Position numbers and translations under genes: made by a program
Shown here: positions 1,192 through 11,250 of the stretch, in pieces
Numbering within the stretch: the stretch's first letter is position 1
Layout of the letters: the number at the start of each line of letters is the position of its first letter
Assembly: GCA_028282265.1 (NCBI GenBank)
Contig: JANQIH010000295.1
Location: 12,254 to 76,253 of the forward strand
DNA length: 64,000 bases
DNA from: Allomuricauda sp.
Lineage (GTDB): Bacteria; Bacteroidota; Bacteroidia; Flavobacteriales; Flavobacteriaceae
Direction of reading: 5' to 3'
Notes under the pieces: generated by a model
Told to the model about the DNA's origin: nothing
Seen by the model: only the letters and a program-made list of their open reading frames with translations
The model's database searches: none

Positions 1192-2655
1192 TTAGATTTT
1201 AGTAAGCTTGTAGGCTACGGTACCATGTGGTGGAATCGCGGTAGCCGTAATTTTTTTTGTTTTTTGGCCAAGATGTTCCCCAGACCAGACATCAGTAACT
1301 TGGTAAGTGCCATCCCAATACTCCCAATGAAAGTAAAAATCAAGGTCCATTGGTTCCTCGCCCAAGTTGAAAAAGGCAATATATTTTTCGTTGCCATCTT
1401 TTGATTCAGCCAACCATATCCTATCTGTTCTTCCCATCCCTGAGTACACAAAATTTGCCGCTTGACGATTATGGGTACTGTGCTGGTTTATTCTCAATAG
1501 TTCTTTGTTTTGGAGCCAGGCATAATCCTCGGCTCGGCTTGTGATGGGATCTCCACCCCAAATCAATGGGGATTTTGCGAAAGACCATAGGGTCATTAAA
1601 GTCTTCTTCTCTTCATCATTGAGGTGAGAAAAATGTTCCTTTTTGGTGCTTTCTCCAGGATAATCAGAGAGGCATAAATTTCCGATGGGAATCATATCCA
1701 AATCGGGCCAGGTGCCATCTCCGATATGAGGTTGCCATGCATAGGCCAAATCAAACATATGAACAATCTTTTCCCAATAGTCCCAGAAGTCAATAGAAAT
1801 CCGGTACAGATTGGCATGGGCTTCCATGTGATTGGCATAACTGACAAAGGCTTCTCCACAGGAAAGGCTCAGTACCATGGGACGGCCACATTGGTCAATA
1901 GCATTCCTGATAAGTTCTATTTCCTTTGAATGATAGGTAGGTGCGGAAATATCATCCACTTTTACGAAATCAACACCCCAATTGGCGTACAAGTCAAAAA
2001 GGGAGTTGTAGTATTCTTGTGCCCCGGGTTTTGTTGGGTCAACACCATACATGTTATTGTTCCATTTGCAGGTATCTATTTTCTTGGCAACATCCGCAGC
2101 GTAATATTCAGTGCCTTTGATAGGGGTATTTGCATTTACAGCCTGGCGTGGAATGCCCCACATGATATGAATACCGAATTTCATATTCTTTTGATGCAGA
2201 TAATCCCCAAGAGCTTTAAATCCATCGCCATTTTTTGATGAGGGAAATCGATTTTCGGCTGGGATCAACCGCCCATATTCATCCATATTTAAAACCGGAT
2301 ATAGATTCCCCAATGAATCTTTTTCTTGCTTAACGGTAAAAGTGGTCCACTGGTTAGGATTCCAATTATCGGGCCCTGGATTGAACCAACAGAAATCTAT
2401 GGTTGCCATATCATATCCGTACGGCAATAGTTTTTTCTCCAAAGAATCCACGGATTGCAAAAACTGTTTTTCAGTTACCGCCCCGTGGTAGGCATCATAA
2501 CTGTTCCATCCCAAAGTTGGGGTTTTGGACCATTCTCTAAAATCGGGCTTCCCTTCTTTTTCTAACGAGGATATTTCTTTCTGTTTTTCATTACAACCAC
2601 TGAAAAACAATGAAGAAAATAAAAACAATATTGGTAGAATTCCATCAGTTCTCAT
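1192..2655 (-). CDS. GH27 glycosidase, lipoprotein; beta-L-arabinopyranosidase (Abp)-like
   Basis: TPTLGWNSY, DFVKVDD (nucleophile), YRISIDFWD (acid/base), WPDLDMIP; lipobox FSGC; IDFCW in place of the DD motif of alpha-galactosidases. Confidence 0.88.
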   Translation of the reverse strand: MRTDGILPILFLFSSLFFSGCNEKQKEISSLEKEGKPDFREWSKTPTLGWNSYDAYHGAVTEKQFLQSVDSLEKKLLPYGYDMATIDFCWFNPGPDNWNPNQWTTFTVKQEKDSLGNLYPVLNMDEYGRLIPAENRFPSSKNGDGFKALGDYLHQKNMKFGIHIMWGIPRQAVNANTPIKGTEYYAADVAKKIDTCKWNNNMYGVDPTKPGAQEYYNSLFDLYANWGVDFVKVDDISAPTYHSKEIELIRNAIDQCGRPMVLSLSCGEAFVSYANHMEAHANLYRISIDFWDYWEKIVHMFDLAYAWQPHIGDGTWPDLDMIPIGNLCLSDYPGESTKKEHFSHLNDEEKKTLMTLWSFAKSPLIWGGDPITSRAEDYAWLQNKELLRINQHSTHNRQAANFVYSGMGRTDRIWLAESKDGNEKYIAFFNLGEEPMDLDFYFHWEYWDGTYQVTDVWSGEHLGQKTKKITATAIPPHGTVAYKLTKI

Positions 2656-2755
2656 AAATATGAAATTCTTTAAAATTCATTAGCTGTATTTGCTCATTTG
2701 TCCAAATGAGTGGTGCAAACGGATTCAGAAATTCAAACCTCAGAATTTAAGATTA

Positions 2756-4357
2756 CTACTCTGACTTGCGTGCTGGGAATTCTATTTTTCTAAGCTCTTC
2801 CCCATCACCTGAGAGATAGAAGTTCTCGATATCACGTTCATCTACCCATCTTACATTAAGGGCTTCTCCTTTTTCAAAGCGATTGTAAACTCCGCCCACC
2901 TTATAAAACGGATGCGATTCATACAAATGTCCATACCCAATCATTCGTAAATCGCCTTGCTCTAAAAGCATGTTTTCCATTTCTGTTTCCATACTCTTTT
3001 TCGAGTTTTGAAGTGCAGGAATTTCTGCAAGATTCCTCACACAGTCAGGGTCTTTTGAAATATCATATAATTCTTCAATGGGTCGTTTGCCAAGATTAAG
3101 TTTCCAGTAATCATAAATACCATCTCGACGCTGTTCTATGAGCAATCTTTTTATAGGACTGCTGTCCACATTTAAATACCCTGTTTCCGGATTGCCGGCA
3201 GGCCATCTATCGGGTTCGTAGTTTTTGATATAAAGCATATCATCCTTGTACATTCCCCTAAATGGATAGCCTTCATCATTGGGCCTTCCAGGGTCATGAC
3301 GTTCTTTTCCAATTAGTACATAATCACGTGATGCTTCTATCTGGCCGGACTCTTTAGAAAAGAGAATGTTTCTGAGGCTCGTCCCTGTAGCGGGATGCAT
3401 CCCCGAAGATTGCCAATCAATGCCTGCTATATCCATAATGGTCGGTGCAAGGTCGATAAAACTGATATAGTCATCAACAACTCGTTTTTCCTTTATTTTA
3501 TCCTTCCACATCATGGTCATGGGAATATGGTTGGCATGTTCATATCCGTTGCCCTTAACCCTGGGAAAAGGCATGCCGTGATCTGAAGTTACTATCACCA
3601 AAGTGTTTTCCAATTCACCTGAATCTTCTAAATATTTTAGTATTTGTTGCAGATGTGAATCAGCATATTCCACTTCCAATGCATAATCCAACAAATCGTG
3701 ACGCACTATAGTCGTATCGGGCCAATACTTGGGTACATGCTTGATATCTGAAAGCTTCTTTTTACCCACCTTCTCTCCCGAACCATATTCATACGCCCTG
3801 TGCGGTTCATGAAAACCAACCCAAAAAAACCAAGGTTGACCTTTTGCAACTTCATTTACGAAATAATTGAAATTGGCTGCATAATCAGTAGCGGAAATCT
3901 CACTGGTAGGCACTTCTTTTTGAAATTCTGAGATGCGCTGTCCTATAACTTGTCGCTCTTTTCCATCAGAAGTCAAGGTTACTCCCGGAACATATCCCTT
4001 ACCTGTATACCCTGTGGCATAACCATTTTCAAGCATTACTTCGGGGAACGTCTTGAATTTTGGTGGAAAATAGATATAATGGTTCGCTCCCGCGTCCAGT
4101 TGCCATGAATTTCTTCCTGTTAAAATCGATGCCCTTGATGGCGAACATTTGGCGTTTGGCGTATAGGTTTTATTGAACAAAATTCCTTGCTCCGCGACTG
4201 CATCAAAACCCGGGGAGTCTACATAGCTTTCACCATAAGCGGACATGTCCATCCCCGCATCGTCAAAAATGACAAGTAAAATGTTGGGTTTTTGCTGTTC
4301 TTGGGATATAGCTATAAACCCAAAAAGGAATACACCTAATAGCAGAACTCTTTTCAT
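2756..4357 (-). CDS. S1 sulfatase (Cys-type, CSPSR), N-sulfoglucosamine sulfohydrolase-like
   Basis: [36 protein letters not shown]; signal peptide. Confidence 0.92.
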   Translation of the reverse strand: MKRVLLLGVFLFGFIAISQEQQKPNILLVIFDDAGMDMSAYGESYVDSPGFDAVAEQGILFNKTYTPNAKCSPSRASILTGRNSWQLDAGANHYIYFPPKFKTFPEVMLENGYATGYTGKGYVPGVTLTSDGKERQVIGQRISEFQKEVPTSEISATDYAANFNYFVNEVAKGQPWFFWVGFHEPHRAYEYGSGEKVGKKKLSDIKHVPKYWPDTTIVRHDLLDYALEVEYADSHLQQILKYLEDSGELENTLVIVTSDHGMPFPRVKGNGYEHANHIPMTMMWKDKIKEKRVVDDYISFIDLAPTIMDIAGIDWQSSGMHPATGTSLRNILFSKESGQIEASRDYVLIGKERHDPGRPNDEGYPFRGMYKDDMLYIKNYEPDRWPAGNPETGYLNVDSSPIKRLLIEQRRDGIYDYWKLNLGKRPIEELYDISKDPDCVRNLAEIPALQNSKKSMETEMENMLLEQGDLRMIGYGHLYESHPFYKVGGVYNRFEKGEALNVRWVDERDIENFYLSGDGEELRKIEFPARKSE

Positions 4358-9914: not shown

Positions 9915-9924
9915 TTGAGTGGTT

Positions 9925-11250
9925 TTATGAAATCCTAAGCACCACAGTGCTATGAGCGTTCACTTTTGTTTTAAATTCATTGGCAAACTCACCAAGTTCT
10001 TCCTGTAACCAAAGGTCATATATTCTTCGACTCCCTTTCAAGCCCAAACTATCGAAACCAAATTGAATTTCTTGTTCTTTTTGTGACAAATTGAAAAGAG
10101 CGGCATAGATTGAACCTTTTCCATTTTGTGCCGTCCACAGTCTTATATCCTCTGTTCTGTCGAATTCCTTGTTGCCAAAACTGTTCTGGTTAATATCAAG
10201 AATCTCTTGATTTGTCAATAAATCGATGGTTTCTTGACTACACTTTGGTAAATGTCCACCAAACATCAATGGCGAACGGAACATGCACCAGAGTGATATA
10301 ACTGATCTTTGTTCTTCTATTGAAAAGTTTGAGAATCGCTCATGTCCTCCAGATTCACCTCTAGGCATATAACCAAAAGGCAACATATCCGCATCAGGCC
10401 AATGTCCTTCGGTGGCAAAAGGTGCCCAAATGGCGCAACGGTCTGTCTGTTTGACAAAGGAACCCCACTCGTCCCAAAAATCGGCAGAAATCCGCCATAA
10501 ATTGGCATTTTTTCTCAAGTGATTGATCACTGTGGTTTCCGGGCCTCCAGGGGACAGACTAAAAACAATATCACGTCCACAAGTGTTAATGGCGGCACTC
10601 ATACCCTCAATATCATCTATGCGGTAGGGCGACCCTTCTCCGGTAGGTGAACCGGTGCTTCGCTCTACTTCGTGCCAGGCATTGACATCATCGGCTTTGA
10701 TGTAGTCCACGCCCCAAGAAGCGTATAATTCCATAATGGAGTCATAGTATTTCTGTGCTTCGGGTTGGGTAAAATCCAGCGTATGCATGCTATTGAACCA
10801 GGGACAGATTTCTCTTTTATAGGAGATTTGGTCAGCAGTTTTATTTGTCCCTTTGATACGACATTTTTCTTCCACTGCCTTCCAGGGGATACCCCGCATA
10901 ATGTGCAGTCCAAACTTCAAACCCAGATTGTGAACGTAATCCGCCAATGGCTTTAAGCCCAAACCATTTTTGGAAGATGGGTGCATTATGGAGTCTGGCA
11001 TTAGCCTACCATACTCATCAATATGTAATGGAATATTGGAATTTTTGTAGTTGTGGTCATTAATACTTTCTCCGTACCACCCTAAATCCAACACCACATA
11101 TTCCCACCCGTATTGTTTTAGGTGTTTGGCCATAAAATCCGCATTGGCCCTTACCTCTTCTTCGGTTGCGTTAGGACCAAAACAATCCCAGCTGTTCCAA
11201 CCCATTGGTGGCGTTTTTGCCCTATTTGCTATGCGTTCCTGTTTTGTCAT
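9925..11250 (-). CDS. GH27 glycosidase without signal peptide (cytoplasmic); Abp-like
   Basis: KTPPMGWNSWD, YVVLDLGWY, DYIKADD, WRISADFWD, WPDADMLP; N-terminus MTKQERIANR is hydrophilic. Confidence 0.9.
   Translation of the reverse strand: MTKQERIANRAKTPPMGWNSWDCFGPNATEEEVRANADFMAKHLKQYGWEYVVLDLGWYGESINDHNYKNSNIPLHIDEYGRLMPDSIMHPSSKNGLGLKPLADYVHNLGLKFGLHIMRGIPWKAVEEKCRIKGTNKTADQISYKREICPWFNSMHTLDFTQPEAQKYYDSIMELYASWGVDYIKADDVNAWHEVERSTGSPTGEGSPYRIDDIEGMSAAINTCGRDIVFSLSPGGPETTVINHLRKNANLWRISADFWDEWGSFVKQTDRCAIWAPFATEGHWPDADMLPFGYMPRGESGGHERFSNFSIEEQRSVISLWCMFRSPLMFGGHLPKCSQETIDLLTNQEILDINQNSFGNKEFDRTEDIRLWTAQNGKGSIYAALFNLSQKEQEIQFGFDSLGLKGSRRIYDLWLQEELGEFANEFKTKVNAHSTVVLRIS

Follow-up and report, generated by a model that had tools for sequence, protein, structure and literature searches.

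The question raised by the locus described here is which sugar is released by two glycosidases of family GH27 that are encoded in a 64,000-nucleotide stretch of DNA from Allomuricauda sp. (contig JANQIH010000295.1; this whole stretch is called hereafter the window, and all coordinates of its features refer to it). Both genes are on the minus strand: GH27_A (1192-2655) is an open reading frame (ORF) of 487 amino acids, and GH27_B (9925-11250) is an ORF of 441 amino acids. Generic database names would make of such proteins alpha-D-galactosidases or alpha-N-acetylgalactosaminidases. What is shown here by homology, by the placing of the motifs and their conservation, and by the order of the genes and its synteny leads us instead to consider, with a confidence somewhat above even, that both are retaining enzymes of the Abp-like Group VI that work as exo-beta-L-arabinopyranosidases in one pathway for a sulfated glycan, GH27_A being a predicted lipoprotein of a subclade with Phe or Tyr at the specificity position and a long L6 loop, and GH27_B a predicted cytoplasmic enzyme of a subclade with Leu. 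The release of arabinopyranose (Arap) is the best-supported reading, and it is firmer for GH27_B than for GH27_A.

The specificity position and the active site

Both proteins match Pfam Melibiase_2 and Melibiase_C above the cut-offs, and no NCBIfam model was found for either of them or for GH43a, the GH43 protein encoded beside GH27_A. In a phmmer comparison with all PDB sequences, the beta-L-arabinopyranosidase Abp of Geobacillus stearothermophilus T6 (GsAbp; 4NX0, 4NXK, 4NZF) was among the top matches of both (4NX0, E=2.8e-104 for GH27_A and E=1.8e-125 for GH27_B), and Bh1870 of Bacillus halodurans (3CC1) was the top match of GH27_A (E=8.2e-105) and the third of GH27_B. GH27_A and GH27_B are 38% identical to each other and 42.5% and 45% identical to Abp, respectively, the three proteins being roughly equidistant. 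The phmmer alignments place residues D66-I67-Q68-W69 of Abp on D87-F88-C89-W90 of GH27_A and on D55-L56-G57-W58 of GH27_B; the numbering of I67, D197 and D255 of Abp was confirmed by a count of the residues and with the help of the D197A mutant entry.

A previous sequence-only reading of this DNA had noticed that the motif IDDCW of GH27 alpha-galactosidases reads IDFCW in one protein and LDLGW in the other, and that Abp has Ile at the position of the second Asp. Both observations are borne out. IDFCW (context ATIDFCW) is encoded at 2386-2400 within GH27_A and LDLGW (context VVLDLGW) at 11077-11091 within GH27_B, and the residues found at the position of Abp Ile67 and of the alpha-galactosidase Asp are Phe88 (codon 2392-2394) and Leu56 (codon 11083-11085), respectively. 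The N-terminal third of GH27_B aligns directly to the alpha-galactosidases 6F4C (EYINIDDCWA) and 3A5V (YVIIDDCWQ); in both cases Leu56 falls under the second Asp of IDDCW, and none of the alignments, whether with Abp, 6F4C or 3A5V, places an Asp at this position. A longer signature had also been described as shared with Abp. The homology behind it is real, but its letters and spacing had been given inexactly: in GH27_B it begins IDEYGRL and not MDEYGRL, Abp reads MDEYSRL...PSAKGG, there are five residues rather than three from the Pro after DEYGRL to PSSKNG and four rather than three between DY.H and KFG, and GH27_A has HIMWGIP where Abp and GH27_B have HIMRGIP.

The role of this position has been addressed in related enzymes. 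Ile at the key site confers Arap specificity in GsAbp and in CpArap27 of Chitinophaga pinensis (PMC4598101). According to the same paper, the C6 group of galactose would collide with Ile67 of Abp, and the I67D change increased the galactosidase activity and decreased the arabinopyranosidase activity. Mutagenesis of the key residue of CpArap27 showed that the position controls the preference for Arap or galactose (Gal), I56D and I56E being weakly promiscuous and I56A and I56C cleaving both substrates (PMC4598101). Arabidopsis APSE, which groups near GsAbp, has Tyr at the key position, and the recombinant enzyme is specific for beta-L-Arap (PMC5853685). Because this Tyr-bearing enzyme has been characterised, an aromatic key residue already has a precedent for beta-L-Arap activity, which matters most for GH27_A.

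The remainder of the active site is kept. In an alignment of 240 homologues from two database searches together with Abp and Bh1870, the equivalents of Abp W29, D66, K195, D197, R251, D255, D284, D286 and M287 reach a conservation of at least 95% in each subclade. The -1 subsite is therefore, like that of Abp, one for galacto-configured sugars. The catalytic Asp pair is present in both proteins and in at least 95% of the relatives in each subclade. The predicted nucleophile is Asp234 in GH27_A (KVDDIS, 1945-1962; equivalent to Abp D197) and Asp187 in GH27_B (KADDVN, 10681-10698), and the predicted acid/base is Asp289 in GH27_A (ISIDFWD, 1780-1800; equivalent to Abp D255) and Asp257 in GH27_B (ISADFWD, 10471-10491). 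An AlphaFold2 model of GH27_A (pLDDT 92.7, pTM 0.89) was compared with known structures by means of Foldseek, and the Abp entries were its best fold match (target-normalised TM score 0.93-0.95, root-mean-square deviation 1.7-3.0 Å), no closer structure being found in the PDB up to April 2026.

Both proteins belong to GH27 (clan GH-D), with a (beta/alpha)8 barrel and a C-terminal beta-sandwich, and both carry the L6, L7 and L8 insertions that distinguish Group VI from alpha-galactosidases (McKee & Brumer 2015). Abp aligns almost over the full length, with gaps only at L6 in GH27_A and at short insertions elsewhere in both proteins, and the alignment of an alpha-galactosidase with GH27_B shows a gap at L6. 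The Ile of Group VI (Abp I67, CpArap27 I56) is replaced by Phe88 and Leu56; in functional terms these are equivalent to it, being bulky and non-acidic, with no Asp and the C6 pocket predicted to be filled. As to location, a signal peptide and lipobox were read from the sequence of GH27_A (MRTDGILPILFLFSSLFFSG-C21, 2593-2655), and no signal peptide was found in GH27_B, because its longest possible ORF leaves only 10 residues ahead of the first conserved GH27 block.

To GsAbp, itself of Group VI, the two proteins are alike in the catalytic Asp pair, the L6-L8 insertions and the non-acidic key residue, and GH27_B also in having no signal peptide in the alignment and in its link to arabinose use. 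GH27_A departs from GsAbp in being a lipoprotein, in an L6 of 34 versus 18 residues and in a Trp in place of Arg129, and the genes of GH27_A and GH27_B are found, unlike that of GsAbp, in a sulfatase-rich polysaccharide utilization locus (PUL) of a Bacteroidota. CpArap27 (Cpin_5740), also of Group VI and from a Bacteroidota, is secreted like GH27_A and acts on arabinogalactan, but it has Ile56, was tied by its authors to arabinogalactan of the larch type and has no sulfatase described alongside (PMC4598101). AtAPSE and OsAPSE have Tyr at the key position, as do about half of the relatives of GH27_A (PMC5853685), but they are proteins of eukaryotes and consist of three domains, one of them ricin-B-like (PMC12137362). 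Bh1870 is an uncharacterised protein of Group VI with Ile at the key site (PMC4598101), and the name under which it was deposited, putative alpha-N-acetylgalactosaminidase, is probably as mistaken as the naming of GH27_A and GH27_B as alpha-galactosidases, and on the same grounds. In SaArap27A of Streptomyces avermitilis (3A21), another GH27 enzyme with a preference for Arap, the Asp is replaced by the bulkier Glu99 (PMC4598101), but this enzyme belongs to Group IV, has extra domains including CBM13, is without L6-L8 and is distant from the proteins of the window (E=3.9e-07 to GH27_A and 9.9e-18 to GH27_B; target-normalised TM score 0.50 to the GH27_A model).

A search of 1.84 billion cluster representatives rendered 769 proteins that match GH27_B at E<=1e-30, and the key position was surveyed in the best 150 of these matches, 143 of which could be aligned at the motif. 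Ile, present in 55 of these representatives, is merely the commonest of many key residues, which include Tyr (20), Ala (20), Phe (12), Gly (11), Met (7), Trp (4), Ser (4), Leu (3), Glu (2) and Asp (1). Since Asp is found in one of the 143, its absence is a trait of the whole Abp-like clade. The sequence-only reading had taken the missing Asp as what points to beta-L-arabinopyranosidases; the absence is real, but being clade-wide it is to be expected rather than remarkable. In the same survey, Ala or Gly is found in 31 representatives, and these natural types may be bifunctional, by analogy with the CpArap27 mutants in which small residues gave dual activity on Gal and Arap.

Leu is found in 118 of the 119 closest relatives of GH27_B (motif DL[GAC]W). 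Of the relatives of GH27_A, 117 in number, 60 have Phe at the key position, 51 have Tyr, 5 have Met and one has Ile, so that Phe or Tyr accounts for 111 of them. Loop L6, taken between the D-x-x-W and MDEY motifs, has about 34 residues in the relatives of GH27_A versus 18-19 in the Ile and Leu types; in the former the long L6, with conserved Trp98 and Trp103, always accompanies Phe or Tyr. In GH27_A itself, L6 is encoded at 2284-2385 (34 amino acids, conserved NPGP..W.P..W.TF), and its extension of about 16 amino acids is predicted to be ordered (pLDDT 91-97 in the AlphaFold2 model). Moreover, the Phe/Tyr subclade differs from both other types at conserved sites, such as Abp W32 (Tyr), C34 (Ala) and Y79 (Trp). 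The Phe of the lipoprotein, which in the sequence-only reading may exclude galactose or suit a substituted sugar, is thus no oddity of this protein but part of the Phe/Tyr signature of a large subclade with a long L6. Plant APSE was sought among the Tyr-type representatives for the length of its L6, and no plant names were found among their cluster names.

The gene neighbourhood and a putative pathway

GH27_A and GH27_B are part of a run of minus-strand genes that reads GH28-like, SSS2, GH27_B, araB, araD, SSS1, araA, Sulf1, GH27_A and GH43a, with spacings that range from an overlap of 4 nucleotides to 100 nucleotides. The genes for arabinose catabolism, araB (8244-9914), araD (7543-8247) and araA (4368-5858), were identified with Pfam, as were two sodium:solute symporters, SSS2 (11247-13007; Pfam SSF) and SSS1 (5868-7493). 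Both GH27 genes are linked to arabinose catabolism: GH27_B is located between SSS2, whose stop codon overlaps its start, and araB, and GH27_A is found one gene beyond araA, after the sulfatase. SSS2, GH27_B, araB, araD, SSS1 and araA form an apparent operon. No terminator-like site was found in the gaps of the run, but the counts of this terminator and promoter scan hardly differed from those expected by chance, and its promoter model was not designed for Bacteroidota, so that it speaks neither for nor against the operon.

Sulf1 (2756-4357) is a secreted S1 sulfatase of the Cys type, with a Pfam match, a type I signal peptide and the motif CSPSR (4133-4147). Its best PDB matches are S1_8A/B enzymes and human SGSH, with E values from 1.8e-35 (9BB9, S1_8A) to 7e-29, and matches to other subfamilies are at 1e-23 or weaker. 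GH43a (200-1189), assigned by Pfam and starting 2 nucleotides downstream of GH27_A, encodes a secreted GH43 protein similar to one of Bacteroides that bears the deposited name of endo-arabinase (PDB 5C0P, 1.2e-61). At the other end of the run, upstream of SSS2, a beta-helix lipoprotein of 512 amino acids (13031-14569) has a weak match to Pfam GH28 (1.6e-8; about 3e-4 in the PDB). An orthologue 62% identical to it precedes SSS2-GH27_B in Flavobacterium flevense (locus L002, 598-2037), and relatives of 26-27% identity are found near GH27 genes of the A type in L013 and L016. This lipoprotein may act in the pathway as an endo-enzyme of a kind not yet characterised.

The pair formed by SSS2, of about 590 amino acids, and a Leu-type GH27 recurs in three of the homologous loci that were compared (L002, 2112-5135; L018, 7199-10317; L019, 7172-10320), across Flavobacteriia, Cytophagia and Gammaproteobacteria, that is, in two phyla. 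The identities of SSS2 and GH27_B to their counterparts are 80% and 65% in F. flevense, 68% and 60% in Reichenbachiella ulvae, and 52% and 61% in the gammaproteobacterium Saccharobesus litoralis. Sulfatases are encoded near all three pairs, together with GH43 and/or araA (araA being near the B-type homologue in L018), and F. flevense also has a GH27 of the A type. The conservation of this pair hints at the uptake of an arabinopyranosyl glycoside rather than of the free sugar. As for the A type, orthologues of Sulf1 (57-65% identity) are beside it in L001, L002, L005, L012 and L013, orthologues of GH43a (43-68% identity) near it in L004, L009, L012, L013 and L019, and araBAD near it in L001, L005, L008 and L012; a sulfatase directly adjoins it in Polaribacter sp. 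M15. L014 and L008 are free of sulfatases, and the A-type homologue of Ignavibacteria has only araBAD as neighbours. A Tyr-type relative is found in a small locus with SusC/D, an esterase and GH39, a family that includes, as PMC10688797 indicates, an enzyme releasing beta-L-Arap-(1,3)-L-Ara from arabinogalactan protein (AGP).

L019 of R. ulvae also holds, at 9001-19194, three GH27 paralogues (439, 484 and 454 amino acids) with sulfatases, a hybrid two-component system (HTCS) regulator, SusC and several GH43 proteins, and the system may be present there in a more elaborate form, to which a third type of GH27 would have been added.

These data are consistent with a pathway in which substrate, compartments and order of action are predictions. 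The pocket that receives the C6 hydroxymethyl group in GH27 alpha-galactosidases would be filled by Leu56 in GH27_B and by Phe88 in GH27_A, so that subsite -1 would fit only beta-L-arabinopyranose, the look-alike of alpha-D-galactose without C6, and hydrolysis would proceed with the two conserved Asp residues as nucleophile and acid/base. The lipoprotein GH27_A, made with the S1_8-like sulfatase and GH43a, would act outside the cytoplasm, where it would remove beta-L-Arap from the non-reducing ends of oligosaccharides already desulfated. SSS2, translationally coupled to GH27_B, would import the Arap-glycosides that GH27_B would hydrolyse in the cytoplasm, and the L-arabinose set free would be consumed by AraA, AraB and AraD. 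The glycan of the locus would be sulfated and rich in arabinose and galactose, for instance a green-algal sulfated arabinan or arabinogalactan.

That both enzymes release Arap, as the sequence-only reading had proposed, is thus favoured by their membership of the clade, the key residue, the intact catalytic Asp pair and the context of ara genes, all the computational tests agreeing with it. Such an assignment is what a specialist in carbohydrate-active enzymes (CAZymes) expects from clade membership, and its aromatic variant already has the plant precedent. If true, it means that both genes are of the kind prone to be annotated as alpha-galactosidases while actually releasing arabinose, and that they mark a cluster for a sulfated arabinose/galactose-rich glycan in marine and some freshwater bacteria of at least two phyla. 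Characterisation of the Leu type and of the Phe/Tyr type with long L6 would extend the rule that links the position of Abp Ile67 to sugar specificity.

Alternative specificities and the residue at position 166

Several points weigh against the assignment of both proteins as arabinopyranosidases of a common pathway. In the literature searched, no characterised enzyme with Leu or Phe at the key position was found, nor any characterised bacterial enzyme from either subclade, that with Leu or that with Phe/Tyr and a long L6. The key residue is an imperfect predictor of specificity, and several GH27 enzymes are promiscuous (PMC4598101, PMC5853685). GsAbp has Ile67 where GH27_B has Leu and GH27_A has Phe, and its identity to them is of only 42-45%. 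A long L6 could alter the architecture of the subsites in ways hidden from the sequence, and a substitution in GH27_A, Trp166, may impair this copy of the enzyme. The assignment of Sulf1 to S1_8, drawn from its best PDB matches, is tentative, and it is gene content alone that suggests a sulfated arabinogalactan or arabinan as the polysaccharide targeted by the PUL.

It is very improbable that one or both proteins are alpha-D-galactosidases or alpha-N-acetylgalactosaminidases. GH27 is mainly a family of alpha-galactosidases, to which the Pfam matches conform, several relatives are so named by their sources, the locus contains genes for galactose catabolism, and the small-residue variants of CpArap27 cleave both substrates (PMC4598101). 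But the Asp that binds the C6 hydroxyl and leaves space for it is replaced by a bulky Leu or Phe, all the characterised enzymes found to group with Abp are beta-L-arabinopyranosidases (PMC4598101, PMC5853685), GH27_B is embedded among araB, araD and araA, and the source names are automatic. It can also be the case that GH27_B is ordinary and that the Phe/Tyr subclade with long L6 has a distinct specificity, be it for substituted (e.g., sulfated) Arap, for another galacto-configured sugar without a free C6 hydroxyl, or as a chain-specific exo-enzyme in which L6 makes plus subsites for a beta-L-arabinopyranan. An L6 of 34 residues rich in Trp (Trp98, Trp103) versus 18-19, ordered in the model, would fit with this idea, since L6 helps to form the active site in CpArap27 and GsAbp (PMC4598101), and so would the changes particular to the subclade and the conserved vicinity of an S1_8-like sulfatase, sulfated beta-L-Arap backbones being known in green algae (PMC5694217). 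We nevertheless regard it as rather unlikely: every residue expected at O2-O4 of a galacto-configured sugar is conserved, Phe and Tyr interchange, so that the hydroxyl is dispensable, plant APSE, which is of the Tyr type, acts simply as a beta-L-arabinopyranosidase (PMC5853685), the loci L014 and L008 do without sulfatases, and an adjoining sulfatase argues for desulfation before hydrolysis and not for tolerance of sulfate.

A different doubt concerns this particular copy of GH27_A, which might be impaired or decaying through the change of Arg166 to Trp, or might owe the Trp to an error of assembly or sequencing; in both cases the gene as read would release Arap inefficiently. The codon (TGG, 2158-2160) is at the position of Abp R129, where Arg is shared without exception by the 236 close relatives, by Abp and by Bh1870, and is present in 141 of 149 representatives of the clade. 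The Trp could have arisen by a single CGG to TGG transition, and CGG is the codon in contigs of related populations about 90% identical. In the AlphaFold2 model, barrel strand beta-3 ends immediately before residue 166, which is on the catalytic face. Moreover, a LacI-family regulator of the window is split, which indicates at least one broken gene in this assembly or genome. On the other hand, the ORF of GH27_A is otherwise intact, its other departures from the consensus of the subclade occur also in close relatives, and the same Trp166 sequence is present in an independent Logan assembly of the source run (word depth about 9, in assembled contigs). Impairment or error seems unlikely to us.

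The wider locus and its candidate polysaccharide

The window (GC content about 41-43%) contains a PUL, with adjacent SusC and SusD genes, CAZymes (GH2, GH43, GH27), sulfatases and a regulator. Its core, assigned with Pfam (21715-32341), comprises a sulfatase, SusD (23239-24792) and SusC (24803-27979) on the minus strand, and an HTCS regulator (28163-32341) on the plus strand. Nine S1 sulfatases are encoded in the window (2756-4357, 21715-23193, 35629-40481, 57085-58638 and 59828-62918), as well as a formylglycine-generating enzyme (49821-50945), a LacZ-type GH2, four GH43 proteins including GH43a, a third symporter, and galE, galT and galK with an aldose epimerase (galM). Nine sulfatases together with the catabolism of arabinose and galactose suggest a PUL for a sulfated arabinogalactan or arabinan.

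A system of similar composition is that of Bacteroides plebeius, whose PUL5 and PUL13 combine GH2, GH27 and GH43 with the S1_8 sulfatase BpS1_8 and act on the sulfated AGP of Codium fragile (PMC8406133). There, periplasmic desulfation precedes the action of the glycosidases, and BpS1_8 enables the use of sulfated AGP (PMC8406133). The likeness is at the level of the system, and B. plebeius differs in being a gut organism in whose PULs the GH27 is uncharacterised (PMC8406133). S1_8 enzymes are also part of the lambda-carrageenan pathway, in which they are exo 2-O-sulfatases on galactose or galacto-configured sugars and are required before the exo-glycosidase (PMC12549532). Lambda-carrageenan itself, considered on account of Sulf1, was rejected as a substrate, since its pathway uses GH150 and GH110 (PMC12549532), neither of which is suggested by any Pfam match in the window (a weak argument), and araBAD would be purposeless.

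Among green algae, Cladophora, both marine and freshwater, has a 4-linked beta-L-Arap backbone sulfated at C3/C2 (PMC5694217), and the presence of beta-L-Arap polymers also in freshwater species would account for the same set of genes in the freshwater F. flevense. It is conceivable, as a tentative proposal, that the long-L6 GH27 and the S1_8-like sulfatase form a dedicated exo pair that depolymerises the sulfated beta-L-arabinopyranan backbones of green algae (Cladophora/Codium) with the help of GH27_B and its symporter; the Trp-rich L6 would then provide plus subsites, and the GH27 would be a main-chain enzyme and not a trimmer of side chains. Neither a PUL nor degradative enzymes for a sulfated arabinopyranan were found in the literature searched, and the locus could yield the first enzymes for these green-algal polymers, a carbon pool of poorly understood turnover. 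Coral mucus may be an alternative substrate, the source appearing to be a coral metagenome: in Acropora the mucus contains 49-63 mol% arabinose (PMC11575353, PMC4043741), whatever its ring form, anomer and enantiomer may be.

Five large secreted proteins without a recognised catalytic domain may likewise serve the locus, as enzymes of unknown kind or as binding proteins. They are a protein of 1676 amino acids with fn3 domains, sorted by the type IX secretion system (41653-46683, plus strand), an fn3 protein of 864 amino acids (19043-21637, minus), a lipoprotein with LamG/FIVAR domains (15384-16856, minus), a protein with a sub-threshold match to GH59 (17198-18544, plus) and one of 384 amino acids with no Pfam match (58635-59789, plus). 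The split LacI-family regulator occupies two ORFs of the minus strand, one (51425-51970) with the helix-turn-helix and half of the sugar-binding domain, the first, and another (50960-51385) with the apparent second half, which suggests a frameshift, a stop codon or an assembly error.

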